This document shows positions 16,931 through 32,399 of a stretch of 35,599 nucleotides of DNA, in pieces. The notes beneath the pieces are model-generated. The model was not told the DNA's origin. It made no database searches and was given only the letters and a program-made list of their open reading frames with translations. Made by a program: the position numbers and the translations under genes. Positions within the stretch are counted from its first letter, which is position 1, and every line of letters begins with the position of its first letter. The stretch is from a virus: IMG/VR virus record IMGVR_UViG_3300012347_000528, positions 1 to 35,599 of that record. One strand, given 5' to 3'.

Positions 16931-17131
16931 TCAAGCTTTTTCTTCATAAGAATAGATTTCAAGTAAAACGTTTATTTCTTCAGTAAGTTTGAATATTTCT
17001 TTTATAAGCTTCTTTTGCTGTCCGTGTGTGTCGCAAAATGGAAAATAAAGAACGTAACTGTTGCGCTGCTGTTCAAGTTCGTACAGCGCAACAATATAGC
17101 GTTCCGTTGGCTTATTCGCTGGCTTCTTCAA
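16931..17131 (-). CDS. Hypothetical small protein (TTG start only, weak)
   Basis: 66-aa ORF with no ATG. The TTG start overlaps the ATPase gene end by 20 nt. Confidence 0.3.
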   Translation of the reverse strand: MKKPANKPTERYIVALYELEQQRNSYVLYFPFCDTHGQQKKLIKEIFKLTEEINVLLEIYSYEEKA

Positions 17132-18434
17132 TTTCTATTTTTAAGGCGCCCGCTTCGCGGTCAACAAGTTCAATGAACAATTCAATTCCTTCGGACTGTG
17201 ACCAGCTTTGAATTTTCTTGAAGTTTTCTTTGTCAACAAGTGAAGCGTCGATTTTAAGAATTTTAACTTCGTTTAAAAGCGAAGCCCCTATTTTAAGACC
17301 AGCGACAATTTGCGAAGCTGTATTTATTTGATTTTTATCAAAAGGAAGTTCGTTGAATAAGAAACATTCTTTTTCTATGTCATAAGACAAACCTTCAATA
17401 TTGATTTTTTCAGCAATTACAGCCGCCTTTTTGTCTTTTTCAGCCTGAATTTCTTCAGTAGCTTCTTCAATTGCAGCTTCAAGTTTTTCAATTTGTTCGT
17501 CAACTTCTTTGAACGATTTGGCTTCCTTAATTTTTTCGTTAATAGCTTCGGAATTTTCAAATTCTTTTTCCATTCGTTCAAGTTCAGGATTTGGAACAGG
17601 CTTGTTGTTCCAGTCTTTTAGCCATTCGTAACCGTCAGAAATTTGAGTTTTAAGACCTTTTTCGACATTTACAGTCGTTCCGATGCTGTTAACGTATTCG
17701 CCGCCGTTAAGCTTCGCCGAAGCTTCAGCAATTTGACGTTCAAGTTCTTTGGCTTGTTGTTCGCGTTCCGCTATTCCTTCGGTTACTGTGTTCCAAGTTT
17801 GCGCTTTTACGCGTTCAGCTTCCTTCAGTTCAGAAATTTCTTTTGAAAGCTTAACAACGTCAACAGGTTCTTTTTCGGCGTCTTCAGCGTTAAAAAACCC
17901 CGTTTTTGTCTGAAGTTCAGCCAGCTTCTTTTTGTCGAATTTTCGGCTTTCGGAAAGTTCTTCAATTTGCTGGTCAATTTCTGTGACGTCAAGCCCTGTA
18001 ATTTTACAGAAATATTCAACTTGTTTGGCGTCTGACATTTTGAAGAAGTCGTTAACGTCGAAGTCAATTACGCCAATTCTATTGTTCAGCCAAGTTCGAG
18101 GCGCCTTAACAAATTGGTCTTTTTCGTCTTCAGCGTTGAGGTTTTCAATTTCAAAATTAATAGGGCTTTTGCCTGTTGAATTCATTTTTACGCGTACAAC
18201 GTAACCGTCTTCAAGTTCAACTTCAATAAGACCCTTTTTGGCGCCTGTTGTGACAGGTTTTGGCGGAATGTTTTTGCCCGTAAGCGCAAGCCAAACAGCT
18301 TCAATGAACGACGTTTTTCCAGCCGCGTTTTTTCCGATTAAATAAATATCTTTTCCAAGAACTTCACCTTCGTAAGCTTTTAAGCCTTTGAAATTCTGAA
18401 TTTTAATGCGTTTAATTTTGGTTTGATTTTCCAT
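17112..18434 (-). CDS. SMC/Rad50/SbcC-like P-loop ATPase with central coiled coil
   Basis: N-terminal IKIQNFKG...LIGKNAAGKTS (Walker A), a long Glu/Lys coiled-coil centre, and a C-terminal VKILKIDASLVD Walker-B-like segment. Confidence 0.6.
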   Translation of the reverse strand: MENQTKIKRIKIQNFKGLKAYEGEVLGKDIYLIGKNAAGKTSFIEAVWLALTGKNIPPKPVTTGAKKGLIEVELEDGYVVRVKMNSTGKSPINFEIENLNAEDEKDQFVKAPRTWLNNRIGVIDFDVNDFFKMSDAKQVEYFCKITGLDVTEIDQQIEELSESRKFDKKKLAELQTKTGFFNAEDAEKEPVDVVKLSKEISELKEAERVKAQTWNTVTEGIAEREQQAKELERQIAEASAKLNGGEYVNSIGTTVNVEKGLKTQISDGYEWLKDWNNKPVPNPELERMEKEFENSEAINEKIKEAKSFKEVDEQIEKLEAAIEEATEEIQAEKDKKAAVIAEKINIEGLSYDIEKECFLFNELPFDKNQINTASQIVAGLKIGASLLNEVKILKIDASLVDKENFKKIQSWSQSEGIELFIELVDREAGALKIEIEEASE

Positions 18435-18458
18435 TTTTATTGTTTTTATAAAGTGATT

Positions 18459-18477
18459 AAAAAGCCCCCGAAGGGGC
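18459..18477 (-). terminator. Rho-independent terminator (GCCCC-UUCG-GGGGC plus U5) of the leftward early unit
   Basis: The minus strand reads gccccttcgggggcttttt. The same module recurs on the plus strand at 24508-24525. Confidence 0.75.
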
Positions 18478-18484
18478 GGTTAAA

Positions 18485-19147
18485 TTAAAAAGGAAGTTTC
18501 TTTTTTGCAAGTGCGCCCGTTGCTGGGTCAACTTCGTAACCAGCTGGAACTTGGTCACCAGCAACCCAATTTTCAGGCGTTACGACCTTGGTCGCTGTTG
18601 CTGCTGGTTGTGTGTTGGCGTTCGTTGGGTCGGCTGCTGTATTCTTTGCAATAAACGGGTTCCCGCCTTGAATTAACAATTGATTTAAGTCAATTGGCGT
18701 TTCTGTGTATGCTTCAATAATAGCGTTTGAAGGTTCGCTTGGCGGTTCGGGTGTGGTCATATATTCTGTGTCCATTCCTGAACCCTTTTTTGTAATTACG
18801 ACGTCGTAATTTTTAGGGTGACCCCAAGCGGGTTTTTCTGACAAAGCCAAAATTGACGAAATAACGTCCTGTTTGTCAAGTTCCATAACTTCAATTTTTT
18901 GGGTTTTGTAGTTCCAAACTATAAGACCCCAAGCGTGTTTTACGCTGTCTTTTTGGTCAGCGCCTTTTTGTGGTTTTGGTTCGCCCTGTTTGAATGCGTG
19001 TCGAATTGGTTTGCCGTCGCGCCATTCAAGCCACATAAGTAAAGGACTTGACAGAATTCTAAATTTGTTTTCGCCGTTTTCAAGTTTTGTAAAACCGCCG
19101 CCGCTTGTAGGTTGTTCGTAACCCGCTGGAATAAATGAATTGTTCAT
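18485..19147 (-). CDS. Putative ssDNA-binding protein (phage OB-fold SSB-like)
   Basis: The layout GENKFRILSSP...HAWGLIVWNY...WGHPKNYDVVITKKGSGMDTEY resembles phage gp32/gp2.5-type SSBs. It has a flexible Pro/Ala/Thr-rich C-terminal tail ending in LPF. Assigned by pattern memory only. Confidence 0.45.
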   Translation of the reverse strand: MNNSFIPAGYEQPTSGGGFTKLENGENKFRILSSPLLMWLEWRDGKPIRHAFKQGEPKPQKGADQKDSVKHAWGLIVWNYKTQKIEVMELDKQDVISSILALSEKPAWGHPKNYDVVITKKGSGMDTEYMTTPEPPSEPSNAIIEAYTETPIDLNQLLIQGGNPFIAKNTAADPTNANTQPAATATKVVTPENWVAGDQVPAGYEVDPATGALAKKKLPF

Positions 19148-19964: not shown

Positions 19965-20052
19965 TGTTCTTGTTTTTTGATGTCGCAAAGTAAAAACAAA
20001 CTTTTCAATAAAAAAAATATATTTGCGCTTTTTTTTGCAATTTTTTTTTACT

Positions 20053-20066
20053 ACGTTTGCAAACGT
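20053..20066. promoter_or_regulatory. 14-bp perfect palindrome ACGTTTGCAAACGT overlapping a TAcgTTTG -7-like box (candidate operator/promoter)
   Basis: Located in the 99-bp divergent intergenic region, 21 nt upstream of the helicase ATG. TAcgTTTG is at 20052-20059 and a second TAtaTTTG at 20018-20025. Confidence 0.45.
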
Positions 20067-20087
20067 TAATTAATACAATAAAAAAAA

Positions 20088-21575
20088 ATGAAATTAAGAC
20101 CCTATCAAATTGAAGCAAAAGACGGCGTTCGTCAATGTTTTTCAAAAGGCAAAAAAAAGGTTGTTCTTTGTAAGCCAACAGGTTCAGGAAAAACCGTGAC
20201 ATTTGCCGATATTGCGCGCGAAAGTGTTGACAACGGTTTTACTGTTATGATTGCGGTTGACCGTTCCGAACTTTTAGAACAGGCACGCAAAAAATTGATT
20301 GACTACGGACTTAACCCCGCCGTTATTACTTCAGGAAAAACAATGCGACAAAATGCAAATTGTTACGTTGCAACCGTTCAAACATTAGTTAAGCGAAAAT
20401 TCCCGAAAATTGACCTTTTAATTATTGACGAATGTCATAAGCAAATTTTCGACAAAGTTCTTACGTCTGAAGCTTATATTGATGTTTTGACAATTGGCGC
20501 AACGGCGACACCTGTAAGAACAGGAAAAATGACCCAAATGGCTGACATTTACGACGACATAGTTGAAACGGTCACAATTAGCGAACTTATTAAACAGGAA
20601 TTTCTTGTTCCAGCAATAACTTATTCCGTAAAAGTTGACGCTTCAAAACTGTCGGTTAAGGGCGGCGAATACGATAATAAAGAAATGTTTGAAATGTTTA
20701 ACAAAAAACCGCTTTACGACGGCGTTGTTGACAAATACAGACGTTTCACACCAAACACAAAAGCAATTTGTTTCAACGTAAACGTTGACCACAGTAAAAA
20801 AGTAGCGCAAGCCTTCAATGAAGCTGGAATTACAGCCGTTCACGTTGACGGAACCACGCCAAAGCTTCAGCGTGAACAAATATTTGCAGCATTCAAAAAA
20901 GGGCTTATTCAGGTTCTTTGCAACGTCGATATTGCAACAACAGGCTTCGACGAATGGACTATTGAAACCGTAATTGTTAACCGTGTCACTTTGTCGCTGT
21001 CGTTATGGCTTCAAATGGGCGGGCGTGGTTCAAGAATAACGCCTTCAGAATTTCAGGGCAAAGTTGGCTATTTACAAAAAACGCACTTCAATTTATTAGA
21101 TATGGGCGGAAACGTTTATTCTTTGGGGTTTTGGGAACAGGAACGAACTTGGTCACTTACACACAAACGCGGCGAAAAGCTTGGAATTGCACCCGTCAAA
21201 GAATGTCCTGAAGACCGATTTGACGAACGCGGTTTTAAGGGTTGCGGCTGTATAATTCCAGCACCAGCGCCAAAGTGTAAACATTGCGGCTATATATTCC
21301 CAAAAGAAGAAAAAAAGCTTGCTGAAGGCGAATTTATACAGGTTGAAAATTACCAGCTTTTACCGCCTGAATTAATAAATAAAACTTGGGGCGATATGTC
21401 AATTGAACAGCTGGAACGCGTTCGGGAATTGAAGGGCTACAAACAAGGCTGGATTATTAGACAAATATTAATGAACGAAAAACTTCAGCTGTCAGATTAC
21501 GCCGTTTATAAGGGTTACAAGAACCCTGAAGCGTGGGTTGAACGAATGGAAAAAATGTATAACTTAAATAATTAA
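20088..21575 (+). CDS. SF2 DEAD/DEAH-box helicase with C-terminal zinc ribbon
   Basis: CKPTGSGKT (Walker A), LIIDECH (motif II), helicase-C region (VLCNVDIATTGFD, GRGSR), and CPED...CGC...CKHCG. Confidence 0.85.
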   Translation: MKLRPYQIEAKDGVRQCFSKGKKKVVLCKPTGSGKTVTFADIARESVDNGFTVMIAVDRSELLEQARKKLIDYGLNPAVITSGKTMRQNANCYVATVQTLVKRKFPKIDLLIIDECHKQIFDKVLTSEAYIDVLTIGATATPVRTGKMTQMADIYDDIVETVTISELIKQEFLVPAITYSVKVDASKLSVKGGEYDNKEMFEMFNKKPLYDGVVDKYRRFTPNTKAICFNVNVDHSKKVAQAFNEAGITAVHVDGTTPKLQREQIFAAFKKGLIQVLCNVDIATTGFDEWTIETVIVNRVTLSLSLWLQMGGRGSRITPSEFQGKVGYLQKTHFNLLDMGGNVYSLGFWEQERTWSLTHKRGEKLGIAPVKECPEDRFDERGFKGCGCIIPAPAPKCKHCGYIFPKEEKKLAEGEFIQVENYQLLPPELINKTWGDMSIEQLERVRELKGYKQGWIIRQILMNEKLQLSDYAVYKGYKNPEAWVERMEKMYNLNN

Positions 21576-21579
21576 TCAA

Positions 21580-21894
21580 ATGAAAAAAACTGAAGAAATT
21601 GAAGTAAAAGAAGCCCGCGTTTGTTCGGGAACCTGTGAAGCTTGCGAATGCGACGACACAAAAAAAATGATTACTTTTGAAGCTTCCTTTTACGCCGAAA
21701 GCGAAAAATCAATTGCGGCTTTGTATCAAAAAGGGAACCCCGAAGGCACGGCGTGGATGTCGAAGGAATGGTTTCCAAAGAAAATTTGTACTTTTAGCCC
21801 CGTAAGACCTTACGGACGCTTTGAAATTTCGGCGCCGAAATGGTACTTGGAAAAATTAAAAATAATCGACTTAATTACAGTTTATGAAAAATAA
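21580..21894 (+). CDS. Hypothetical protein with N-terminal Cys cluster
   Basis: 104 aa, containing CSGTCEACEC. Confidence 0.5.
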   Translation: MKKTEEIEVKEARVCSGTCEACECDDTKKMITFEASFYAESEKSIAALYQKGNPEGTAWMSKEWFPKKICTFSPVRPYGRFEISAPKWYLEKLKIIDLITVYEK

Positions 21895-22153
21895 AATAAC
21901 AGACGCCGACATTCAAAATATTATTGACTATTTACAGGGAACTTGTATGACTTTACAGGCAGCCTGTCAGGCTTACGGCTACGAAGAAGAAGACCTTACA
22001 ACTGAACAACTTGAAACTATTGACCAAGAAATTTTTCTTTGTACAAGTTGCGGCTGGTGGCACGAACAGGGCGAAAGTTCCGAACATAGCCCCGACGGTG
22101 AAAACTACTGTATTGAATGCGGAAACGACGAAGAAGACGAAGAAGACTATTAA
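21884..22153 (+). CDS. Hyper-acidic small zinc-ribbon protein
   Basis: 89 aa with CTSCG...CIECG, 24 Asp/Glu against 2 Lys, and a C-terminal DEEDEEDY. Confidence 0.55.
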   Translation: MKNKITDADIQNIIDYLQGTCMTLQAACQAYGYEEEDLTTEQLETIDQEIFLCTSCGWWHEQGESSEHSPDGENYCIECGNDEEDEEDY

Positions 22154-22170
22154 TTTAAAAATCAATAAGA

Positions 22171-22410
22171 ATGGAATTAACTAAAAGATTACAAGAACAA
22201 CTTTTTAAGAAAAAAGAACAAGAACCCCGTTCAGATTTTGCAATTTTATTTTCAGAAAAAGGCGTTTTTAAATTTAAAAAAGAATTGGCTTCTTCTCAAA
22301 TTTGCGGAATGTACCAAAGATATTTTCAAGGTAATAGCGAATTTTGCGGCTGTAAAGTTTTTGAAAACGAAGAAATTGAACAGGATTTTTTAATAATTAA
22401 ACAAGTTTAA
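22171..22410 (+). CDS. Hypothetical protein
   Basis: 79-aa ORF in the operon. Confidence 0.45.
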   Translation: MELTKRLQEQLFKKKEQEPRSDFAILFSEKGVFKFKKELASSQICGMYQRYFQGNSEFCGCKVFENEEIEQDFLIIKQV

Positions 22411-22411
22411 A

Positions 22412-23203
22412 ATGACAATAATTAACACCATAAGAATTGAAACAATTCTTTTTTTAGACATTGAAACAGCCCCAAATTGGCTGGAATTTAAAGACGTTCC
22501 TGAAAACGTTCGTACAGAATGGATTTACAAGTTCAAGTTCCGACCTGAAGCGCCAAGAATGCCAAGCGCGGAAACTATGGAAAACACGAACTACAACGAC
22601 CAGCTTCACAAACGCAACCTTGAAAATTTTGAAAAATACTTTTCAGACCTTTGGACGGCTGAAGCGGGGCTTCACCCTGAATTTAGTCGCGTCGTTTGTA
22701 TTTCTGTCGGGTTTATGTACCAAGGTCAATTTTATATGCGTTCTTATGCGAATATTAACGAAGGTCAACTTCTTCGAGCGTTTAAAGACGACCTTGAAGC
22801 TTTCAATAAGTCAGTCATTGACGCCCGTCTTTGCGCGCATTACGGCAAAGGTTTTGACTTCCCTTATATGGCTAAAAGAATGTTAATAAATAGGATTTCA
22901 CTTCCCAAAAACCTTGACACAGCACACTTGAAACCTTGGGAACAAATTAACCTTGACACCCAAGAAATTTGGAAGCTTGGCGGCTTCAATTCAGCTGGTT
23001 TGCCCGCTTTGTGTATGGCTTTCGGCTTGGAAACGCCAAAAGACGACCTTGACGGTTCCAAAGTCGCGGCGGCTTTTCACGCTGGCGAATTAAAGCGAAT
23101 TTGTATTTATTGCGAAAAAGACGTTTTTGCTTTACTTAACGTTTTTAAAGCTATGCGTTTAGAAGAACCGCTTGAAGACAGTCAAATTGTAATTCGCGAA
23201 TAA
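22412..23203 (+). CDS. 3'-5' exonuclease, RNase H-fold (PolB-exonuclease-domain-like)
   Basis: Contains FLDIETAP (ExoI), HYGKGFDFPYMAKR (ExoII) and IYCEKDV (ExoIII). Confidence 0.8.
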   Translation: MTIINTIRIETILFLDIETAPNWLEFKDVPENVRTEWIYKFKFRPEAPRMPSAETMENTNYNDQLHKRNLENFEKYFSDLWTAEAGLHPEFSRVVCISVGFMYQGQFYMRSYANINEGQLLRAFKDDLEAFNKSVIDARLCAHYGKGFDFPYMAKRMLINRISLPKNLDTAHLKPWEQINLDTQEIWKLGGFNSAGLPALCMAFGLETPKDDLDGSKVAAAFHAGELKRICIYCEKDVFALLNVFKAMRLEEPLEDSQIVIRE

Positions 23204-23397
23204 TGGCAAAGTTAAACGAAATGACACAGCAAAAAGACGGGGCGCTTATTGTAAAATTACAACCTGAAGCCGACGAATGGCTTCAGGTTCGCGTTACTAT
23301 TGGCGGAAAAGAAATAAAAGGAATTACTTCGGTTAAATTTGAACAGAATTCAGCCGAAAAGGTAAAAGCACACTTAAACAAAGTTTTAAAGAAATGA
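23203..23397 (+). CDS. Hypothetical protein
   Basis: 64-aa ORF with a TAATG overlap. Confidence 0.45.
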   Translation: MAKLNEMTQQKDGALIVKLQPEADEWLQVRVTIGGKEIKGITSVKFEQNSAEKVKAHLNKVLKK

Positions 23398-23762
23398 ATT
23401 CAATATATAACGACGCGCTGGAAGCACAGGGAAGTCACGGGAAGCCTATTTTCTTAATTAATGCAACTTTGTCAAAGTCGCAAACTTTCGGCGTTTCTAA
23501 ACGCGTAAAAAAGGAATTCTTTTGCGCAAAGAAAATCGTTGCAGCTGGAACCATTGAACAAATGAAAGAAGACCCGCACGTTTTATTGTCCTGTTTGGTT
23601 CAAATTCTTGGAAAACAACAAGCTTTTAAAGCTGACAGGTCAAAATATAAGATTGAAGACGAAATTGTTCAGGTGCTAAATGAAAAGGGCGTAAACGAAC
23701 CGTTCGTTAAAAATGAAGGGGTTTTTGTCATATCTTTTCACGGTTATTCACTACACAAATGA
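23394..23762 (+). CDS. Hypothetical protein
   Basis: 122-aa ORF with an ATGA overlap. Confidence 0.5.
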   Translation: MNSIYNDALEAQGSHGKPIFLINATLSKSQTFGVSKRVKKEFFCAKKIVAAGTIEQMKEDPHVLLSCLVQILGKQQAFKADRSKYKIEDEIVQVLNEKGVNEPFVKNEGVFVISFHGYSLHK

Positions 23763-24151
23763 AATTAAGCCAAGCGAAAAAAGAAAAAGGTCAATACTGT
23801 TGCGCTTATTCCTGTAACAACAAACCCGTCGAAAAACTCGGCGGGCTTTGTCATAAACACTACCAAAGGAAAAGAAGAAAAACCGACCCTGTTGGTGTTC
23901 GCTTCAGTCAATTCAAAGTTAATGCTTTAAAAAGAAATAAAGACTTTTCAATTACGCTGGAACAATTTCGCATTTTTTGCCAAGAAACGGGCTACTGTAT
24001 CGTAAAAGGAAGGCGCGGAAAAAACGCCACAGTTGACAGAATTGACAACAAAAAAGGCTATCATATTGACAATATTCAACTTTTAACACTTCGCGAAAAC
24101 GTGCGTAAATACTACGAAGAAGACCGTTTTGAAGACGACTGTCCTTTTTAA
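23759..24151 (+). CDS. HNH-like (His-Me finger) endonuclease-family protein
   Basis: N-terminal CCAYSC...LCHKHYQRKRR zinc motif and C-terminal VDRIDNKKGYHIDNIQLLTLRENVRK, an HNH-like core with Arg where the catalytic His is usual. Confidence 0.5.
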   Translation: MKLSQAKKEKGQYCCAYSCNNKPVEKLGGLCHKHYQRKRRKTDPVGVRFSQFKVNALKRNKDFSITLEQFRIFCQETGYCIVKGRRGKNATVDRIDNKKGYHIDNIQLLTLRENVRKYYEEDRFEDDCPF

Positions 24152-24174
24152 TTTAAAAAAAACTTGCAAAAAAA

Positions 24175-24205
24175 TTTGCAGGGTTCGCCGAAATGATTAC
24201 ATTTG
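24175..24205 (+). promoter_or_regulatory. Bacteroidota-type sigma-A promoter: TTTG (-33) N19 TAcaTTTG (-7)
   Basis: TTTG at 24175-24178, a 19-nt spacer, and TAcaTTTG at 24198-24205, about 32 nt upstream of the ATG at 24237. Confidence 0.65.
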
Positions 24206-24236
24206 CCCTATCAATAACAATAAAAAAAAACAAATT

Positions 24237-24497
24237 ATGAGTTTATTAAGCACAGATTACAAACTTACAGTAGTTCAAAAAGGTAAAAAATTTCTTTACA
24301 CAGTCACAGACAAAGAAGGGAAGGTTCTTGGAACCCGAAGTTCAACAAACCCAAACTTTGTGGCTGTAATGATTTGTAAAGACCCAAAAACAGGCGAAAT
24401 TTACAGCCCGAACTTTTTCTTCAGTCGTTTTGAATTGGTCGGAAAAGGTGACAGTCGTCACTACAAAGACCAGCATATTGCAACCGCTACGCTTTAA
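24237..24497 (+). CDS. Hypothetical 86-aa protein; start corrected from 24129
   Basis: ATG downstream of the canonical promoter. The track's upstream extension would read through the promoter. A terminator follows. Confidence 0.55.
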   Translation: MSLLSTDYKLTVVQKGKKFLYTVTDKEGKVLGTRSSTNPNFVAVMICKDPKTGEIYSPNFFFSRFELVGKGDSRHYKDQHIATATL

Positions 24498-24507
24498 TTA
24501 ATTAACC

Positions 24508-24525
24508 GCCCCTTCGGGGGCTTTT
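24508..24525 (+). terminator. Rho-independent terminator (GCCCC-UUCG-GGGGC plus U4)
   Basis: Reads gccccttcgggggctttt. It is part of a 24-nt exact inverted copy of 18460-18483. Confidence 0.75.
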
Positions 24526-24536
24526 ATACCTTCAAG

Positions 24537-24857
24537 ATGAAAAATAAATTAAAAGAATACACTTACGACGAAATTGAAACCATTCTTAAAGAATGTCGTC
24601 TTCAAATTGCTAAAATTGCGGAACTAACGAACCCGACTGAAGTTTTGGTTCTTATGCCAAATTATTTCAGGTCAATTTTAGATTACTATTTTCGTGAAAC
24701 TTGTAAAACGGCACTTTGCGAAATATGTTTTGGAACAGGTTCGACGTTTTACGGGGTTAAAAACTTTTACCCTTCACCAAGTAACCAAATAATAATTTCT
24801 TGTTTAGATAATGCTTTAAATAAGGAAAGTTTGGAAGTAAAGATTGATTTAAAATAA
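24537..24857 (+). CDS. Hypothetical protein
   Basis: 106-aa ORF with an ATG start. Its stop lies inside the left arm of a long hairpin. Confidence 0.5.
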   Translation: MKNKLKEYTYDEIETILKECRLQIAKIAELTNPTEVLVLMPNYFRSILDYYFRETCKTALCEICFGTGSTFYGVKNFYPSPSNQIIISCLDNALNKESLEVKIDLK

Positions 24858-24910
24858 GGCGGAAAGGCGAAGTTCGATTTCATTCCTCTTTTGAACGCCC
24901 GCCTTATTTT
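24851..24910 (+). terminator. Long imperfect hairpin (12-bp outer stem plus inner GC / GTTC-GAAC helices) with a U-rich tail
   Basis: AAAATAAGGCGG (24851-24862) pairs with CCGCCTTATTTT (24899-24910). The inner pairings are g67c68/g97c98 and gttc (24872-75)/gaac (24893-96). Confidence 0.5.
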
Positions 24911-25047
24911 GGGTTTCCTTCATTACAGAATAACGAAGGTAATGTTCAAATTATTTAGTAAACCCGCCACGATAAAAAAGCCTTTTCAGCAATTTGGAAA
25001 CGCAACGGGTCAAAGATACAAATATTAATAATTATAAAACAAATAAA

Positions 25048-25944
25048 ATGGCAAAAAAAATCAGAACACAGGACGAATTTACAAGAAATTGGATAATTCA
25101 AAATTCAATTCAAATAGTTAAGCGCTATAAAGCGGGGGTTTTAACCATTCGCGGGCTTCATTATCAACTTGTTGGAATTGGAATGACAAACACAATGCAG
25201 CACTATAAGCGTGTCGTTGAAGCTATGATTCAGGCGCGTTGGGCTGGTCAAATTGATTTTGAAGCATTCAGCGACCACGACAGGGAAGTTTTGGGCTTCA
25301 CAGCTTCAGAAGAAACAATTCTTGAAGACCAAATTGACACAGGAAAACGACAGGTTCGGGCGTGGGTTCAAAACTATTCAAAAAACCGCTGGGAAAACCA
25401 GCCAATTGTTCCCGAAGTTTGGATTGAAAAAAAGGCGCTTCAAGGGGTTTTTAAAGACCCGTGTTCAGAATACGACGTTGCACTTGCACCGTGCAAAGGT
25501 TACCCTTCTTTGACATTCCTGAACGAAGCGCGCCAAAGGTTCCAGCGTGTAAAAGAAGACGGCAAAATTCCTGTAATTTTGTATTTTGGTGACTATGACC
25601 CAAGCGGCGAAGACATTCCGCGAAGTATTGAAGAAAACTTTACGCGTTTTGGCTGTCCTGTTGAGGTTAAAAGAATTGCATTAATGGAAGAACAGGTTCT
25701 TGCGTGGAAGTTGCCACCAGCACCCGCAAAAGTGGGCGACAGTCGAACAGCGAATTGGGGCGGGCTTGGTCAAGTTGAACTTGACGCCGTGGAACCTGAA
25801 AAGCTTCAGCGTCTTTGCAAAAAGGCTATTGTCGAATTTCTTGACCCCGATTTATACGAAGACCTTCTTACGCAACAGGCTGAAGAAAAAAGCCAATACG
25901 TTAAAGAATTAAAAGACTATGTTACAAACTTAAATTTTGACTAA
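25048..25944 (+). CDS. Spo11 / Topo VI subunit-A-like protein (5Y-CAP plus toprim; 'Mini-A'-like); start corrected from TTG at 24994
   Basis: LTIRGLHY (R35-x3-Y39) resembles the Spo11/TopoVI-A catalytic TxRxhxY motif. VWIEKKALQGVF (toprim Glu), CKGYPS and LYFGDYDPSGEDI (DxD) match the Topo VI-A toprim domain. Confidence 0.7.
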   Translation: MAKKIRTQDEFTRNWIIQNSIQIVKRYKAGVLTIRGLHYQLVGIGMTNTMQHYKRVVEAMIQARWAGQIDFEAFSDHDREVLGFTASEETILEDQIDTGKRQVRAWVQNYSKNRWENQPIVPEVWIEKKALQGVFKDPCSEYDVALAPCKGYPSLTFLNEARQRFQRVKEDGKIPVILYFGDYDPSGEDIPRSIEENFTRFGCPVEVKRIALMEEQVLAWKLPPAPAKVGDSRTANWGGLGQVELDAVEPEKLQRLCKKAIVEFLDPDLYEDLLTQQAEEKSQYVKELKDYVTNLNFD

Positions 25945-26378
25945 TGGCAAACGCAAACCCAAATATTAATTACAAAGTAAGGTTCAAACACGGTGAAGGT
26001 TCCCGCGTTTCAAATATTATCTTAAAAGCTTTGAAGTCGAATAAAACCGACTTCAAGCTTGAAAAGATAAAAACGCCGACGCATTTAAGAAGTAACGAAG
26101 ACCACGTTCAGGAAACAATTATTTCTTTTTTAGACAAAGAAAAACCAGCAAAATTGGAATTCGTTCGCAACGAAATAATTGCTTTAATTCCTGAATTTTT
26201 TCCTGTGAATTATTTCTTTAAATTTACGGACGCTTTTTCAGCTTTGCCGTTCAACTACAAACTTGAATTTTGCCTTATAGTTCACGAAACAGGGCAACGC
26301 GTTTGTTGCTACACTCGAATAAAAGAACAGAAAAAGCAAAGCGAACCAATAACAGCTTACAAAATAGAAGTTGACTAA
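25944..26378 (+). CDS. Hypothetical protein (translationally coupled to the Mini-A-like gene)
   Basis: 144-aa ORF with a TAATG overlap. Confidence 0.5.
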   Translation: MANANPNINYKVRFKHGEGSRVSNIILKALKSNKTDFKLEKIKTPTHLRSNEDHVQETIISFLDKEKPAKLEFVRNEIIALIPEFFPVNYFFKFTDAFSALPFNYKLEFCLIVHETGQRVCCYTRIKEQKKQSEPITAYKIEVD

Positions 26379-27281
26379 ATGAACCAAATTGAATTTCAAT
26401 ACTATCCAGCAAAAGTGAACATTCCCGAACCTTTGGGAATGGTCACTTTATTTGAATTCCTAAAAGCGAACCAAAACCCAAGCGAAAAGACAAAAGACGT
26501 ATTTCGTCGAATTGCTGAAGCTGAAGCAAACGGAAACCTGAAGGAAAAAGCGAAGCTTAAACAGGAAAATCTTTACTATTTTACGCCTTGCGTCGTGTCA
26601 AACGGTCAAGGTCGTAAATATAGCGACATTGTAAAATTTACAGGGCTTATGGTTCTTGACTTTGACCACATAGCGCACGCGGTCGCTTTTAAGTATTACA
26701 TTTTTGACCTGTTCAAGTGTGTCGTTGCTGGCTGGCTTTCACCTTCAAAAAAGGGCGTTAAGTTCTTGGTCAAAATTCCTGTCGTAAGTTCGACAGACGA
26801 ATTCAAGGCGTATTTTTACGGGCTTGCTATTGAAATGGAAAAGTACAAAGGTTTTGACGGTTCAGGTCAAAATTGCATTTTGCCGCTTTTTCTGTCTTAC
26901 GACGAAGACCTTCTTTTTAGAGAAAACCCCGACACTTGGACGCGAAAAGGTAAAAAAATAAATGAATTTCAAGCTTCAGACATTGTGCCTGTAAAAGTCG
27001 AAGCTGGTTCCAGCGAAAAACTTCAGGTTCAAAGAATTATTTTGTCGCTGGTTGAAAAAATTATTGACAACGGTCACCCGCAAATAAGGGCGGCGGCGGT
27101 TACCTTGGGCGGTTACGTTGCAACGGGTTACATAGATTTTCACGAAGCCGAAAGTTTTATTTTTAATTTAATTCAAAATAATTCATACCTTCGCAAAGGT
27201 GTCGAAGGCTATCAAAAAACCGCAAAGACAGCAATTCAAACAGGAATGAAGTCACAGTTATTTTTAAAAGACAATAAATAA
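26379..27281 (+). CDS. AEP-superfamily primase-like protein (BT4734 / VirE N-terminal domain family)
   Basis: KAKLKQENLYYFTPCVVSNGQGRKYSDIVKFTGLMVLDFDHI matches the BT4734-like motif layout. It is immediately upstream of the VirE-type NTPase. Confidence 0.65.
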   Translation: MNQIEFQYYPAKVNIPEPLGMVTLFEFLKANQNPSEKTKDVFRRIAEAEANGNLKEKAKLKQENLYYFTPCVVSNGQGRKYSDIVKFTGLMVLDFDHIAHAVAFKYYIFDLFKCVVAGWLSPSKKGVKFLVKIPVVSSTDEFKAYFYGLAIEMEKYKGFDGSGQNCILPLFLSYDEDLLFRENPDTWTRKGKKINEFQASDIVPVKVEAGSSEKLQVQRIILSLVEKIIDNGHPQIRAAAVTLGGYVATGYIDFHEAESFIFNLIQNNSYLRKGVEGYQKTAKTAIQTGMKSQLFLKDNK

Positions 27282-27283
27282 AG

Positions 27284-28798
27284 ATGAAGGAAAATAAAGA
27301 GATTACAGCGAACGACTTCTTAAAAGAAGGGTTTGTTCAGGAAAAGAAATATGTTCCTTTTGACGAAGCGCCTGAAGTTCAACAGGCACGTTCACAACAA
27401 GAAAAAGACGCTTGGCGCGAAGTTTATTCTTTTGCGCATTTGATTAACCGCGAAGGGCGTAATTACACAGACACGGACATTAAAAACCTGTGTGAACGTT
27501 TTCTTTTATCTTTGGAAAAAGTTCGTAAGGTATTTGCGCGCGTGTTTTCAGAAAACGCCGACGCTTTCGGAATTTCGGAAAAGCCTGAAATTTACAAAGT
27601 AGAATATTTTCTTCGTAAGAATTGGGAATTTGTTCGCAATGAAGTAACACAGCGTTCGGAATGTCGCAAAGCTGGAACCGACGACGATTTTGAAAAATTG
27701 AACGTCGATACATTATACAGAAAACTTCAGCACGTGAATTTTAAGTTTTCAATGGAAAAATTAAAGTCGCTTTTGAAGTCAGATTTTATGACGCTTTACA
27801 ACCCGTTTTTAAACTACTTTGAAAACCTTCCCGCTTGGAACTATGAAGAAGACCATATTGGCGCGCTGGCGGGCTACATTAAAGCCACGAACCAAGAATT
27901 TCACGTTACACAGTTCCGCAAAATGCTGGTTCGCTGTGTCGGGTGTGCGCTTTACGGAATTGAAAACCGTTTTGTTTACGTTTTGATTGGCGAAAAACAA
28001 GAAAAAGGAAAAAGCACGTTTATACGGTTCTTGAACCCATTTGGCTCGAAATATTATACTGAAGCCCCAATTCGCGACAACAAAGACACCTATTTTAGTT
28101 TTTCCGAAAATTTCATTTACAACCTTGAAGAACTCGCTTCGCTGTCAAATATTGAAGTCAATCATTTGAAGTCAATTATTTCAATGGCTATGATTAAAGA
28201 ACGTAAGGCGTTCGCCGTCGATGCTGAAGAACAGCCGCGTCGCGCCAATTTCTTCGGGTCAACCAATAAAGACGAATTTCTTACAGACAGCGAAAACACG
28301 CGCTGGCTGTGTATCAATGTCGAAGACATAAATTGGAACTACAAAACCGAAGTAAACATTCATAAGGTTTGGGCGCAAGCCTTCGCACTTTTTCACGACA
28401 AAGAATTTAACCAAAATTTGACCAGCGACGAAATGCAGCAGCGCGACGCAATGAACAAAGCTTTTGAAATTACAGACATTGAAAAAGACCTTATTAAGCA
28501 ATGCTTCGCGCTGGCTACTGAAGAAGACCCTGAAGCGTCGTTTTATTCGCTTCCTGACATATTAAGCACGTTACAGGAAAAGTTTCTTGGAAAAACATTG
28601 AACGCCAAATTTATTGGAAAATCAATGACACAGCTTGGATTTATAAAAGGAAACAAACGCATAAACGGACACAAAACCCGTGGTTACTTTGTGAAGTTAA
28701 GAACAACTTCAAACTATATAAATGAAAACCAAGGCGGCGACGCACCAAAGAAAACCAACGAACAAGGCGAACAGGGCGAAATTAAGTTTAAATTCTAA
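27284..28798 (+). CDS. VirE-family P-loop NTPase (D5/SF3-like replicative helicase)
   Basis: Walker A VLIGEKQEKGKST and Walker B-like FIYNLEELAS, with size and layout typical of virulence-associated protein E. Confidence 0.75.
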   Translation: MKENKEITANDFLKEGFVQEKKYVPFDEAPEVQQARSQQEKDAWREVYSFAHLINREGRNYTDTDIKNLCERFLLSLEKVRKVFARVFSENADAFGISEKPEIYKVEYFLRKNWEFVRNEVTQRSECRKAGTDDDFEKLNVDTLYRKLQHVNFKFSMEKLKSLLKSDFMTLYNPFLNYFENLPAWNYEEDHIGALAGYIKATNQEFHVTQFRKMLVRCVGCALYGIENRFVYVLIGEKQEKGKSTFIRFLNPFGSKYYTEAPIRDNKDTYFSFSENFIYNLEELASLSNIEVNHLKSIISMAMIKERKAFAVDAEEQPRRANFFGSTNKDEFLTDSENTRWLCINVEDINWNYKTEVNIHKVWAQAFALFHDKEFNQNLTSDEMQQRDAMNKAFEITDIEKDLIKQCFALATEEDPEASFYSLPDILSTLQEKFLGKTLNAKFIGKSMTQLGFIKGNKRINGHKTRGYFVKLRTTSNYINENQGGDAPKKTNEQGEQGEIKFKF

Positions 28799-29081
28799 AA
28801 GTGGAACAATGGAACAATAAACTTGTTCCACTTTAAAGCGTTGATTTTCAGCGACTTTTGAACAAGTGGAACAATGGAACATCAAAGTTCCTATTCAGTT
28901 GAAAAAACACCAGCAAAACGGCAAAACTGAAAAAAGGTAAAGAATAGCGAATTCAATGTTCCAATGTTCCAATAGTATAATAATAATATTTTAAAATTTA
29001 ATAATTACTAATAAAATAAGGGGTTCAGCGCTTTTTTTAAAGTGGAACATTAACGGAACATTAAACTTTTTAATGTTCCAT
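28798..29081. repeat. Iteron field: 10 exact GGAACA/TGTTCC cores in direct and inverted arrays (candidate origin of replication)
   Basis: Plus-orientation cores are at 28803, 28811, 28868, 28876, 29044 and 29055; minus-orientation cores are at 28824, 28957, 28965 and 29074. An 18-nt exact direct repeat aagtggaacaatggaaca sits at 28799-28816 and 28864-28881. An 11-bp inverted repeat sits at 28798-28808 / 28824-28834. GGAACATTAA occurs three times in 29044-29079. Confidence 0.7.
28971..29020. promoter_or_regulatory. AT-rich core (47 of 50 bases A/T), candidate DNA-unwinding element
   Basis: aatagtataataataatattttaaaatttaataattactaataaaataag is flanked on both sides by iteron clusters. Confidence 0.55.
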
Positions 29082-29100
29082 AAAATCAAAATCAAAAACA

Positions 29101-29760
29101 ATGGAAACAAAAGAACAACAAAAAGAAACTGAAGGGCGAATTCAGGCGGAATGCTTTCAATGGTTTAATAACACCTTCCCAAAGTTGCGCGGTTTAATGT
29201 ATCACGTTCCTAATGGCGGCAAAATGAGTGGTTCAGCTGGGAACAGGCTTAAAGCTATGGGTGTGGTTGCTGGGGTTCCTGACTTGGAATTTCATTTTTG
29301 GAAACGAACATTTTTCTTGGAATGCAAAACACCAACAGGAACAGTTTCCAAAGACCAAGTAAAAGTTCACACAATACTTGACGAACACGGTTTTCGTGTT
29401 TTTGTCTTCAGGTCACTTGAAGAATTTCAAACAATCGTTTGGGCTATTATTGAAGACAAATCGACACAGTTTGCCCGTGGAATGAAGAAAGCTGAATTTG
29501 ATTACAGAAACAACGTTTTTAGCTATCTTTACAACCTGAACGAAGGTGAAGTTCAAGTTTTGGCTGAATTGGTCGCAAAAGAAAACCTTGACAAATTTAA
29601 GGGGCTTCTTTTTGAATTTATGGCTGAAGGTTACGACAAACTTGAAGGCTTTGAGCTTTTGTTTACGCCTGACTATTTGAGTTTTTACAAAAAAAGTTTA
29701 ACACAGGAAACCGAAGTTCATTATAACGGTTCCGCAACGACTGAAATTCCAAATGAATAA
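29101..29760 (+). CDS. VRR-NUC domain nuclease (PD-(D/E)xK)
   Basis: GVVAGVPDLEFHF...FFLECKTPTGTVSKDQVKVHTILDEHGFRVFV matches the VRR-NUC core. The C-terminal ~100 aa are unassigned. Confidence 0.8.
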   Translation: METKEQQKETEGRIQAECFQWFNNTFPKLRGLMYHVPNGGKMSGSAGNRLKAMGVVAGVPDLEFHFWKRTFFLECKTPTGTVSKDQVKVHTILDEHGFRVFVFRSLEEFQTIVWAIIEDKSTQFARGMKKAEFDYRNNVFSYLYNLNEGEVQVLAELVAKENLDKFKGLLFEFMAEGYDKLEGFELLFTPDYLSFYKKSLTQETEVHYNGSATTEIPNE

Positions 29761-30250
29761 GAAGGAAAAAGACGAAAAGAACCTTCCAGCTGTTCCAAAG
29801 AAAACGGCTGTTGAAAAGCAAAGGGAATTCATTCAGGCTGTATTTGACAGGAACCCTGTCGGTCGCCCTCGAATGTATTCCCGAAAAGAAGAACTTGAAG
29901 AACAAATTAAGGAATATTTTGTTAATTGTTACGAAGACCGTATTAAATTGACAATCACAGGTTTAGTTTTGTATTGTGGTTTTTCAGACAGAAAAAGCTT
30001 TTATTCTTACGAACAAAATCCTGAATTTAGTCACACTATCAAGAAGGCGCGCGCCCTTATTGAAATGAATTACGAACTTATGCTTCAGGAAGCGTTTCCG
30101 CAAGGTGCCGTTTTCGCGCTTAAAAACTTGGGCTGGTCGGCTGAAGAAAAAACGGAAACGACCGTTAAAACTAAAACTGAATTTTATATTGGTGGCGACG
30201 ACGACGACGACGAAGAACCAACTTTTACAGAATATGAAGACACAGAATAA
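29753..30250 (+). CDS. Terminase small subunit (Terminase_2-like)
   Basis: Contains GRPRMYS...LTITGLVLYCGFSDRKSFYSY...IKKARALIEMNYE...GAVFALKNLGW and an acidic tail. Confidence 0.8.
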   Translation: MNKKEKDEKNLPAVPKKTAVEKQREFIQAVFDRNPVGRPRMYSRKEELEEQIKEYFVNCYEDRIKLTITGLVLYCGFSDRKSFYSYEQNPEFSHTIKKARALIEMNYELMLQEAFPQGAVFALKNLGWSAEEKTETTVKTKTEFYIGGDDDDDEEPTFTEYEDTE

Positions 30251-31793
30251 AGACACACAGCGCGTCAAATTGCGCTTTAATTGGAAGCTATTCAACCCGA
30301 ACTTTCACCACTTGGAACGCGAATTTGCGAACACCGCAAGGCGTTTCCTGTGGTTTTACGGGGGTTCGTCTTCAGCGAAGTCTTACAGTATTGCGCAAGC
30401 GGTCGTTATTATTGCGGCGCTTGTTGAAGGAAGCGACACGCTTGTTTTCCGTAAAGTGTCGGCAACGCTCGAAGAAACTATTTTCAAAGACTTCGTTACG
30501 GTCATTAATACACTGAAATTGAACGCTTTTTTTAGGGTCAATTACAGACGTATAACTTGCATTAACGGGGCGACAATCATATTCAAAGGGCTTGACAATT
30601 CCGAAAAAATAAAAGGAATTTCAGGCTTCAAAAGGGTCGTAATGGACGAAATTTCAGAAATGGAACTTGCGGACTTTAAGCAAATTCGTAAGCGTTTGCG
30701 TGGTCGCCTTGGTCAACAGATAATTTGCGCGTTCAACCCTATTGACGAAGAACATTGGATTAAAAAAGAAGTATTTGACAAACAGGGCAAAGTTCAGCTT
30801 TCAAATTCGCTGGTTGACAGGAACGGAATTCTGAAGCTTGACATTGACCCGCTTTATACTGAAGTCGCTGAAAAGTGGGAAGGAAACCCTTTGACTGTTG
30901 GCGGAATTGCGAAGCCTTCAAACTTCGTCGTTGTGCGTTCAACGTACTTAAATAATTATTGGGTCGTTGGGTCGCCCTGTAAGACCTTCGGCTTTTACGA
31001 TACACAGACAATCATTGACTTTGAACACGACAAAGCCAACGATTACGATTTTTATTGCATTTACGGGCTTGGTTTTTGGGGCAAATTAGACAAAGGCGGC
31101 GAAATGTATAAAAGCTTTGACACGAAGCGCCACGTTACGCCTTCGGTTCCTTATGACCCTGAAAAACCCCTTCACCTTACATTTGACGAAAACGTTAACC
31201 CGTTTATGACCCTTGACATTTTTCAAGCTGAAGACCTGAAGGCGTGGCAAATTGACGAAATTTGCCTTGAAGACCCAAGAAACACACTAAAACACACAAT
31301 ACAGGAATTCGCCCAAAGGTACCCGCCGAACGGGCTGACGGTGTTTATATATGGTGACGCGACCAGCAAAAAGGCTGACGTTAAGCTTGAAAAGGGCGTT
31401 AACTTTTTCACGCTTATAGAAAACCAGCTTAAAGATGCGGGTTACACAGTTATTCGCCGCGTTCCAAGTAAAAACCCGAACGTTGACCTTCGTTGTAATT
31501 GGTTCAATGAAGTTCTTAACGGGCTTGACGGAATTGAAGTCAGCTTTGGTGACAATTGCACCCGTACAATTGGCGACTACAAATATTTAAAACAGGCTTC
31601 AGACGGCGGAAAACATAAGGAAAAGCAAAAGAACCCCGTTACAGGTGTGGTTTATGAAAAGTACGGACACAACACGGACGCCAACGACTACTTTTTTACT
31701 TATTACTTCGCCAACAGCTTCGCCAAGTTCGGAACTTCACGGGGCGCGCAAAAAGCTATTATAAGAAACCGAACGAAAAAAAATACATACTAA
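30234..31793 (+). CDS. Terminase large subunit (PBSX-type); start corrected from 30105
   Basis: The ATG at 30234 overlaps the TerS end by 17 nt. Contains Walker A FYGGSSSAKSYS, Walker B RVVMDEISE, and nuclease-domain motifs FIYGDATSKKAD and GHNTDANDYF. Confidence 0.9.
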   Translation: MKTQNKDTQRVKLRFNWKLFNPNFHHLEREFANTARRFLWFYGGSSSAKSYSIAQAVVIIAALVEGSDTLVFRKVSATLEETIFKDFVTVINTLKLNAFFRVNYRRITCINGATIIFKGLDNSEKIKGISGFKRVVMDEISEMELADFKQIRKRLRGRLGQQIICAFNPIDEEHWIKKEVFDKQGKVQLSNSLVDRNGILKLDIDPLYTEVAEKWEGNPLTVGGIAKPSNFVVVRSTYLNNYWVVGSPCKTFGFYDTQTIIDFEHDKANDYDFYCIYGLGFWGKLDKGGEMYKSFDTKRHVTPSVPYDPEKPLHLTFDENVNPFMTLDIFQAEDLKAWQIDEICLEDPRNTLKHTIQEFAQRYPPNGLTVFIYGDATSKKADVKLEKGVNFFTLIENQLKDAGYTVIRRVPSKNPNVDLRCNWFNEVLNGLDGIEVSFGDNCTRTIGDYKYLKQASDGGKHKEKQKNPVTGVVYEKYGHNTDANDYFFTYYFANSFAKFGTSRGAQKAIIRNRTKKNTY

Positions 31794-31826
31794 ATTATTT
31801 TTGTATATTTGGAAAAAATTATTATT

Positions 31827-32399
31827 ATGTTTCTAATTAAAAAAGATTACTTCATTTTGATTGACGAAGAAGACCTTGACGTTGTAAGTTATTCCAGCGA
31901 CAATGGCACCACGTCTGAAGCTATTATTGCGGAAACGGAACAGAATGTTATTCAAGAAATTTCTTCTTATTTGGCTGGACGTTACGACGTTTCAAAGATT
32001 TTTGTCAATATTGAAGAACACGTTACAGGTGCGACTTATGCAGCTGGCGAATTTCTTTACGACGAAGCTTCAGACGCCTTTTATACAGCACTTGAAGCGA
32101 CCAGCGCCAACGACTTACTGACTGACGAAGCGAAGTTTAAAAAAGGCGACACACGCCCCGCTTTAATTAAGCGCCACGTCGTAAACATTGCGCTTTACGA
32201 ACTACATTCAAGAATTAACCCGCGCAACATTCCTGAATTTAGAATTCAGCGACGCGACGACAGTATTGAATGGCTGAAGCTGGTTCAAAACCCACGGAAC
32301 AACGTTGACGCTGATTTTTTGCCAAAGAAGGACTTCGGCGAAAAGCGCGGGAACGATATAAGTTGGAATTCAAACCCTAAACTAAAACACAGCTATTAA
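31827..32399 (+). CDS. DUF1320 (Mu gp36)-like head-completion protein; ATG start preferred over TTG at 31809
   Basis: The N-terminus LIKKDYFILIDEEDLDVV...SEAIIAETEQNVIQEISSYLAGRY resembles the DUF1320 layout. Confidence 0.45.
   Translation: MFLIKKDYFILIDEEDLDVVSYSSDNGTTSEAIIAETEQNVIQEISSYLAGRYDVSKIFVNIEEHVTGATYAAGEFLYDEASDAFYTALEATSANDLLTDEAKFKKGDTRPALIKRHVVNIALYELHSRINPRNIPEFRIQRRDDSIEWLKLVQNPRNNVDADFLPKKDFGEKRGNDISWNSNPKLKHSY

Follow-up and report, generated by a model that had tools for sequence, protein, structure and literature searches.

The Mini-A locus

The window analysed here, that is the whole 35,599-nucleotide stretch of the IMG/VR virus record IMGVR_UViG_3300012347_000528, is a 35.6 kb phage contig with terminase, Mu-type portal, tail and amidase genes, and carries on its plus strand (25048–25944) a gene whose product of 298 amino acids (aa) is identified by its sequence as Mini-A, which within the superfamily of type IIB topoisomerase A subunits (Top6A/Spo11) is the branch that viruses carry as a stand-alone protein. 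The open reading frame (ORF) runs from an ATG at 25048 to a TAA stop codon at 25942–25944. A longer version beginning at a TTG (24994) appeared in the mechanically compiled ORF list; the ATG is the likelier start, as the N-termini of the homologues align at this codon and as the nucleotide homology with a relative lacking Mini-A is non-coding up to position 25045. A preliminary description of this DNA had reported the 298 aa ORF together with four motifs, and all of them were found in place: LTIRGLHY (with R35 and Y39), VWIEKKAL (E127), CKGYPS (residues 149–154) and GDYDPSG (D182 and D184).

The predicted protein begins with a winged-helix domain (residues ∼1–112, 25048–25383), the presumed remnant of the 5Y-CAP domain, in which R35 is encoded at 25150–25152 and the putative catalytic Y39 at 25162–25164. 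It is followed by a toprim domain (residues ∼118–235, 25399–25752) with E127 (25426–25428), D182 (25591–25593), D184 (25597–25599), G187 and K228, and by a C-terminal box of the T2BI type, QVELDAV (residues 242–248, 25771–25791), whose E244 (25777–25779) is the presumed equivalent of the clasp glutamate of Top6A, all on the plus strand.

The gene is preceded by a leader of about 190 nt that begins with a terminator-like stem-loop with a U-run (24848–24912, plus strand; RNA fold −21.8 kcal/mol, z = −2.3), which follows the upstream 106 aa gene and was overlooked by a simple terminator scan owing to its long loop. Up to position 25045 this leader is 78% conserved in L172, a relative lacking Mini-A (L numbers denote the loci compared). 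On the downstream side, the TAA of Mini-A overlaps by its final base with the start codon (ATG) of a 144 aa ORF (25944–26378, plus strand), so that the TAATG coupling noted previously is indeed present. Next come genes for a BT4734-like/VirE-N primase-type protein (26379–27281) and a VapE-like helicase (27284–28798), both on the plus strand and both identified by Pfam and PHROG matches, and then an iteron-like field (28790–29110, strand not applicable) composed of direct repeat families D1–D7 and inverted repeats I1–I14. The spacer of ∼300 nt (28798–29100), located between the VapE helicase and a VRR-NUC gene, contains some ten units of TGGAACA/TGTTCCA, both direct and inverted, and the field is probably the origin for the primase–helicase pair. 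The placement of Mini-A just upstream of the primase and helicase genes and of the iteron field, as given in the preliminary description, was therefore correct.

Exonuclease, HNH, helicase, primase and VRR-NUC genes make up the surroundings of Mini-A in the window, and the region 20000–32000 shows ∼80% nucleotide identity to the Flavobacterium phages vB_FspM_lotta8-1, lotta8-2 and pippi8-1 (Pippivirus, Winoviridae; 34.6–34.8 kb). Rfam and tRNA scans of the window yielded no tRNA gene, no Rfam family and no hidden RNA gene.

Relationship of Mini-A to Top6A and Spo11

BLASTP aligned residues 32–264 of the window protein with gp49 of Pseudomonas phage NP1 at 39% identity (E = 4e-47), with LTIRGLHY, GDYDPSG and QVELDAV standing opposite LTIRQLYY, GDHDPSG and SWELDAL, respectively. 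NP1 gp49 is the reference Mini-A named in Fig. 2 of Takahashi et al. 2020 (PMC7671362). Furthermore, PHROG 6247, labelled 'DNA topoisomerase', matched the protein from end to end (E = 1.2e-63). Together with a Topo VI-A as the best relative in the Protein Data Bank (PDB), these matches support the original view of the protein as a stand-alone, Mini-A-type Topo VI-A/Spo11 homologue without a B subunit. Mini-A is already a described family; the window protein is an additional member of it and no novel kind of system.

The published description of Mini-A comprises a length of ∼300 aa, a truncated 5Y-CAP domain, an R-x-x-aromatic-Y motif, a glutamate plus DxDxxG, a T2BI box of the WELDAL type, a viral origin and the lack of a B subunit (PMC7671362), and each of these features was found in the window protein. 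With respect to length, it has 298 aa, and its global profile alignment begins at about residue 63–73 of the 369 aa Methanocaldococcus Top6A. To judge conservation, we used an alignment (A2) of 91 diverse relatives, 30–58% identical to the window protein. In R35-G-L-H-Y39, the position before the catalytic tyrosine is occupied by His, as in six of these relatives, the other 85 having Tyr or Phe. The T2BI box conforms to the motif [V/W/Y]-E-L-D-A-[LIV], its first position being Val in 46, Trp in 37 and Tyr in seven sequences; hence the Val of QVELDAV departs from the published WELDAL consensus, yet is commoner than Trp in this sample.

The family is very large: at E ≤ 1e-3 it counts 8,766 clusters in a representative library clustered at 50% identity. 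A collection of 5.8 billion proteins contained 1,896 relatives of the window protein, the best 120 of which were all at least 61% identical to it. Homologues of 60–64% identity occur in cultured phages of Alistipes, Bacteroides, Parabacteroides and Elizabethkingia, three of the five being annotated as 'DNA topoisomerase' and two as 'hypothetical protein', and homologues of ∼35% identity in phages of Pseudomonas, Salmonella, Xylella, Roseobacter and other hosts. The sub-clade whose cultured members are phages of Bacteroidota is unusually well conserved: among 41 sequences from otherwise dissimilar phages, 90 or more of the 298 columns are invariant, and the residues specific to this sub-clade include H38, NRWENQ (113–118), C139 and C149.

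Sixteen residues, namely R35, Y39, Y53, R64, D76, Q118, E127, K128, G151, S154, D182, D184, G187, K228, E244 and A247, are invariant in all 91 relatives, and L245 and D246 of the T2BI box are more than 96% conserved. Since R35, Y39, E127, K128, D182, D184, G187, K228, E244 and A247 are all among them, the motifs are, by the measure of their conservation, no chance similarity. In the 2026 cryo-electron microscopy study of Methanosarcina mazei Top6A, Y106 is the catalytic tyrosine, E202, D254 and D256 are the acidic residues, and an 'electrostatic clasp' between R102 and E342 restrains the tyrosine, loss of the clasp by the E342Q exchange leading to hyper-cleavage (PMC13040014). The Mini-A equivalents of these catalytic and clasp residues (Y39; E127, D182 and D184; R35–E244) are invariant without exception, and this mapping of the recently described Top6A clasp onto Mini-A is new here. 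Given that all six residues that run or restrain cleavage in Top6A are unchanged among the 91 relatives, Mini-A is almost certainly an active enzyme. As the CAP tyrosine is missing from both MksG and JetD (PMC10123090), the invariance of the catalytic and clasp residues also suggests that Mini-A sides with Top6A/Spo11 in mechanism. The Top6A tyrosine acts with the toprim domain of the dimer partner (PMC13040014); the proximity of Tyr39 to the toprim site of its own chain in a monomer model, which had been proposed as a check, is thus not a suitable one.

Searching the PDB with an HMMER profile of the 91 relatives gave M. jannaschii Top6A (1d3y_A) as the best match (E = 0.0099, over the DxD region), accompanied by a sub-threshold N-terminal piece in which klTlRqlYY of the profile was aligned on STLREAYY (R99/Y103 of 1d3y_A), while a single-sequence phmmer search and a profile of the close clade (A1) returned only noise. 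For hhalign comparisons, a reference set of 71 full-length Top6A ORFs was taken from genome loci because a search with the 81 aa M. jannaschii Top6A fragment had produced short fragments only. The toprim halves of the two families matched with a probability of 93% (E = 3.5e-7), and the toprim domain of Mini-A is thus homologous to that of Top6A. The global alignment was collinear with M. jannaschii Top6A, placing R35/Y39 on R99/Y103, E127 on E197, D182/D184 on D249/D251 and K228 on the lysine of HPLK; E244 and A247 fell on E340 and S343 with low confidence and in the anchored global alignment only, the C-terminal (T2BI) profile alignment by itself being not significant against Top6A. When an AlphaFold2 model of the window protein (mean predicted local distance difference test score, pLDDT, 87) was compared with the PDB by Foldseek, the best match was M. 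mazei Top6A (9o8p_A; probability 1.0). Foldseek against BFVD detected just a 152 aa fragment of 60% identity and no informative fold; we take this fragment, as a guess, to be gp28 of phage PDS1, in which the gene is split (see below).

With regard to the two Topo VI-A halves attributed to the protein at the outset, the toprim half has thus stood, whereas for the CAP half taken alone the similarity to Top6A is of marginal significance (P = 0.019), its homology being argued from the fold class, the collinearity, the invariant R-x3-Y in exact register and the published analysis.

Occurrence of Mini-A in related phages

Relatives of the window phage were ranked by the identity of their VapE helicases to that of the window. 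Mini-A is present in L171 (98%), L168 (78%), L170 (72%), L169 (71%) and, one gene further upstream, L008 (70%), and is absent from L172 (91%), lotta8-1 (81%) and L174 (67%). Homology between the window and L172 extends through the leader to 25045, after which Mini-A is replaced, gene for gene, by a predicted lipoprotein of 132 aa (MKNLKITALAFAFLILLNSC...). Lipoprotein genes occupy the same slot behind the same leader in L172 (3101–3499) and in lotta8-1 (L003, 5933–6352), their signal peptides ending in LLNSC and LFTSC, and by eye the L172 lipoprotein resembles lotta8-1 gp18 in having the same signal peptide and common motifs. The comparison of these sequences suggests that genes are swapped in the Mini-A slot in the manner of morons. 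In the relatives that carry Mini-A, its divergence parallels that of the backbone genes (72–81% identity as against 70–78% for VapE), and this agreement, together with the gene-for-gene exchange behind a conserved leader, gives no support to a mobility resembling that of homing endonucleases.

Two further arrangements were observed. In L008 (8004–9420), a Mini-A of 73% identity lies ahead of the 106 aa gene; this Mini-A is followed by a gene for a 164 aa protein with an N-terminal signal peptide, and no homologue of the 144 aa ORF is found there. In the Parabacteroides phage PDS1 (L176, 2501–3387), Mini-A is annotated as two ORFs overlapping by 4 nt, gp28 ('DNA topoisomerase') being the CAP half and gp29 ('DNA primase') the toprim half. 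A frameshift or an error in sequencing may lie behind this annotation, or the gene may truly be split in this phage, which is viable and in culture.

Because close relatives without Mini-A retain the primase, the helicase and the iterons and carry a lipoprotein gene in the slot, Mini-A is a dispensable accessory gene in this Flavobacterium-phage lineage, a conclusion that is new here. These findings bear directly on an initiator role, in which Mini-A would nick the iteron field (28798–29100) and start rolling-circle or break-primed replication. Such a role was proposed by Medvedeva et al. for the Mini-A of Asgard skuldviruses, which have no other replication gene, and in the window Mini-A does lie ∼2.9 kb upstream of the iteron-like field. 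However, this phage has a primase–helicase pair of its own adjoining the iterons, relatives whose VapE proteins are 81–91% identical keep the iteron block without Mini-A (in lotta8-1 the field sits in a block aligning at 79%), L008 has Mini-A in a different slot, and in PDS1, a phage in culture, a split or a frameshift separates the CAP half of the gene from its toprim half. The split or frameshift in PDS1, the exchange in the slot and the retention of the primase–helicase pair and iterons thus all point to an accessory gene and not to one that fires the origin, and the replication-initiation option of the preliminary description is very improbable.

The swap slot would, on the other hand, suit an accessory weapon or host-interaction gene of the moron type, cutting the DNA of the host, of plasmids or of rival phages or disturbing a host defence based on related toprim nucleases. 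Besides the predicted lipoprotein genes behind the same leader in L172 and lotta8-1, such a role agrees with the terminator-like hairpin upstream, the patchy presence in close relatives, the relationship of the toprim domain to the defence nucleases JetD and MksG, and the nature of the next gene, the 144 aa ORF, in which the window and L171 (3501–3929) share no more than 52% identity, as against 95–100% in the other genes compared, and which is a hypervariable or allele-swapped gene. It is at odds with the fixed position of Mini-A in the replication module of one large gut-phage group, where it lies between an exonuclease gene and a gene for single-stranded DNA-binding protein (SSB) in 40 of 40 loci, and with the lack of any match to defence or anti-defence families other than a 42-residue toprim match; moreover, an enzyme that becomes linked to DNA through its tyrosine would act stoichiometrically and make a poor bulk nuclease. 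On balance we regard an attack on host or rival DNA, or another role in the interaction with the host, as an unlikely function.

In order to define possible partners, the genes of the window and the neighbours of Mini-A elsewhere were inspected. No GHKL/HATPase family was detected among the Pfam matches of the 45 window ORFs (the best 25 of 41 families, the remainder having E > 3e-4), in agreement with the earlier claim that the genome encodes no GHKL B subunit, and none was present among 117 representative neighbour families within three genes of 86 Mini-A loci. The neighbours at these loci are heterogeneous and comprise exonucleases, SSB, Sak4-type AAA_24 proteins, Mu Gam, HNH and GIY-YIG endonucleases, methylases, radical SAM proteins, amino-acid:DNA transferase (ADDT) and uncharacterized proteins, with no family common to Mini-A loci outside the one over-sampled gut-phage group. 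In NP1, Mini-A adjoins a ligase, Sak4 and a Cas4 exonuclease.

DNA-modification genes were seen near Mini-A in L004 (2352–5435), where Tet/JBP, NUDIX and ADDT genes occur, and radical SAM, C5-methylase and dGTP diphosphohydrolase-type genes lie near it elsewhere; NP1 itself belongs to the Queuovirinae.

The coupled 144 aa ORF, which had no match in the scans of family libraries, was considered as a 'Mini-B' partner and rejected. Its family comprises 10 clusters in the 5.8 billion proteins, so far only in this lineage of ∼35 kb phages; it follows Mini-A in the window and in L168–L171, but also occurs without Mini-A in lotta8-1 (gp19), L172, L173 and L174, and is missing from L008 and ∼80 other Mini-A loci. 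It is best described as a lineage-specific, hypervariable backbone gene, and its elimination as a partner is likewise new here. A separate minus-strand region of the window (17112–19147) encodes an ABC/SMC-type ATPase (AAA_23/AAA_15, with a weak, SbcC-like PHROG match) beside a 220 aa protein, and both are kept in lotta8-1 (gp02 and gp03). The pair could be OLD-like, SbcC-like or defence-related and is not linked to Mini-A; as the ATPase (17112–18434) is also encoded by lotta8-1, which lacks Mini-A, it was rejected as a partner too.

That no ATPase partner was detected is pertinent to a further alternative, according to which Mini-A is a true topoisomerase whose dimer, by itself or together with a protein of the host or phage, removes supercoils from the replicating phage DNA or decatenates it, by reversible cleavage and as a dispensable helper. 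The retention of the cleavage–religation residues and of the R–E clasp would fit a controlled, reversible cutting, the databases label the family as DNA topoisomerase, and dispensability is what one would expect where a phage enzyme overlaps with those of the host. Genes 39, 52 and 60 of phage T4, which encode its topoisomerase, are such dispensable 'DNA-delay' genes overlapping host enzymes. Against this, neither an ATPase nor a second gate for DNA capture is available, with no GHKL protein found in the genome or among the neighbours; Mini-A lacks the N-terminal CAP portion that binds the B subunit (PMC7671362), and the phage ABC-type ATPase occurs in lotta8-1 as well. Topological relief is therefore a rather doubtful role for Mini-A.

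Proposed activity and comparison with known systems

Taken together, the comparative evidence favours Mini-A as an auxiliary, dispensable break-maker of the Top6A/Spo11 type in the early region, and not as a replication initiator; we put the probability of this reading at about 0.6. By analogy with Top6A and SPO11, two copies of Mini-A would associate by way of their toprim domains, creating a channel for DNA, and Tyr39 of one protomer would attack a phosphate held at the Mg2+ site of the other (E127, D182 and D184), giving a 5′-phosphotyrosyl link between protein and DNA. The R35–E244 pair would be the 'clasp', restraining the tyrosine until bending or supercoiling has brought the DNA into a suitable shape. 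As there is no ATPase gate, Mini-A may, without ATP and perhaps reversibly, nick the DNA or break both of its strands instead of using ATP to drive strand passage. Among the conceivable roles we tentatively prefer one in which Mini-A supplies recombination-dependent replication, or the formation of concatemers, with protein-linked breaks, a preference based on the gene neighbourhood. Mouse SPO11 has been reported to generate covalent double-strand breaks in vitro on its own, with no partner present (PMC11922746), which renders a B-independent activity of Mini-A plausible.

Several observations weigh against this reading. The Top6A of archaea is not known to cut DNA by itself, in the absence of its B subunit and of ATP, and thus a B-independent activity of Mini-A is an assumption. 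The biological role preferred above has the gene neighbourhood as its sole basis, and the literature searched contained no experimental work on Mini-A, whose role was called unexplored in reviews up to late 2024. At the level of homology, Pfam (at E ≤ 1) and NCBIfam scans gave no match for the window protein itself; the full-length Foldseek match to 9o8p_A reached only E = 4.9e-3 with a TM score of 0.32; the CAP half alone scored no better against Top6A than seven of 150 column shuffles; and with the isolated N-domain Foldseek returned generic winged-helix folds only (linker histone, Fur/Zur, ArgR), all with E > 1. Lastly, Pfam matches among the 91 relatives were to DUF2399/JetD-type toprim models in 20 + 6 cases and to TOP6A-Spo11_Toprim in eight (best E = 1.3e-5), TP6A_N being touched by four (best 0.027).

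In the comparison with TP6A_N and JetD profiles suggested in the preliminary description, the window protein itself matched no Pfam family, the family profile had Top6A 1d3y_A as its best relative in the PDB, and the PADLOC match to JetD was weak. An alternative is a toprim nuclease that cuts by hydrolysis, as JetD and MksG do, or a non-catalytic DNA-binding protein, in which the winged helix would position the DNA and Tyr39 would be merely structural. This explanation draws on the excess of DUF2399 and JetD_C over Top6A toprim matches (26 against eight of 91), on the only direct JetD match, found by PADLOC over a 42-residue toprim stretch (E = 5.7e-4), and on the statistically marginal CAP homology. 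It does not account for the invariance of R35 and Y39 in 91 of 91 relatives, in register with R99 and Y103 of Top6A, at a position where MksG and JetD have no tyrosine (PMC10123090), nor for the invariance of the clasp glutamate E244, and the best PDB matches are to Top6A and not to JetD. We therefore consider it improbable, and continue with the auxiliary break-maker.

A bolder version of this break-maker, which is speculative and in our view does not reach even odds, is that Mini-A represents a self-sufficient minimal type IIB cleavage module. It would be a homodimer independent of B subunit and ATP, making Spo11-like tyrosine-linked double-strand breaks, gated only by the R35–E244 clasp and the shape of the DNA, and traded among phages as a dispensable cassette that starts recombination-dependent replication or damages rival DNA. 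If true, Mini-A would be a living model of the Spo11/Topo VI-A ancestor, and phage accessory nucleases would gain a new class. Within the Top6A/Spo11 superfamily, it is the one branch without biochemical or genetic data, and it bears on the origin of Spo11-type break-makers. Two results bring this question closer to an answer: the size of the family with its invariant catalytic residues, and the existence of natural relatives with and without Mini-A in one phage lineage. These relatives have the same origin and primase–helicase pair and allow a clean comparison, and the exchange with a lipoprotein gene while these elements are kept itself argues against an essential initiator. Furthermore, the homologues of 60–64% identity in cultured Bacteroides, Alistipes, Parabacteroides and Elizabethkingia phages could be deleted. 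To the published picture of the family, the present analysis adds the evidence for dispensability and for a swap slot, the exclusion of the 144 aa ORF as a partner and the Top6A clasp mapped onto Mini-A.

Within the published Mini-A family, the window protein falls into a sub-clade under tight conservation (identity of at least 61% to the best 120 matches), whose members from cultured phages infect Bacteroidota and which also includes a few metagenomic bins labelled Deltaproteobacteria or Acidobacteriota.

Three other toprim systems were compared and rejected as a home for the protein. JetD/MksG, the nuclease subunit of Wadjet, resembles it in having a Top6A-like toprim domain after a CAP-like arm, in forming dimers that cut DNA and, including DUF2399, in giving weak profile matches, but has no CAP tyrosine and cuts hydrolytically within an SMC complex, whereas Mini-A has the invariant R-x3-Y; in addition, no JetA, JetB or JetC gene was found in the window or among the neighbours of Mini-A. 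OLD/GajA, in which an ABC ATPase domain is fused to the N-terminal side of the toprim, does not apply to a 298 aa protein without an ATPase domain, the ABC-type ATPase at 17112–18434 being encoded separately and also in the Mini-A-less lotta8-1. Topo VIII, the plasmid-borne fusion of B and A subunits, shares with Mini-A the restriction to mobile elements, the lack of the N-terminal CAP part and a V-E-L-x-A box (RVELNAM); it is, however, far longer and has a GHKL ATPase and a transducer domain, neither of which exists in the window protein, whose box reads QVELDAV and whose element is a phage.

With Topo VI-A/Spo11 (1D3Y; 9O8P), the toprim core, the DxD motif, the glutamate, LPxxPxK and the winged-helix R-x3-Y are collinear and the clasp glutamate is kept. 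Compared with Top6A, the window protein is ∼70 residues shorter at its N-terminus and lacks the part that binds the B subunit, is without the ∼20-residue helical insert ahead of the T2BI box, shows less than 20% identity, falls below the thresholds of Pfam TP6A_N and TOP6A-Spo11_Toprim, and was found with no B or B-like partner. Since the protein fails the Pfam models and no B partner was found, Mini-A is a sister of Top6A/Spo11 and not a member of it.

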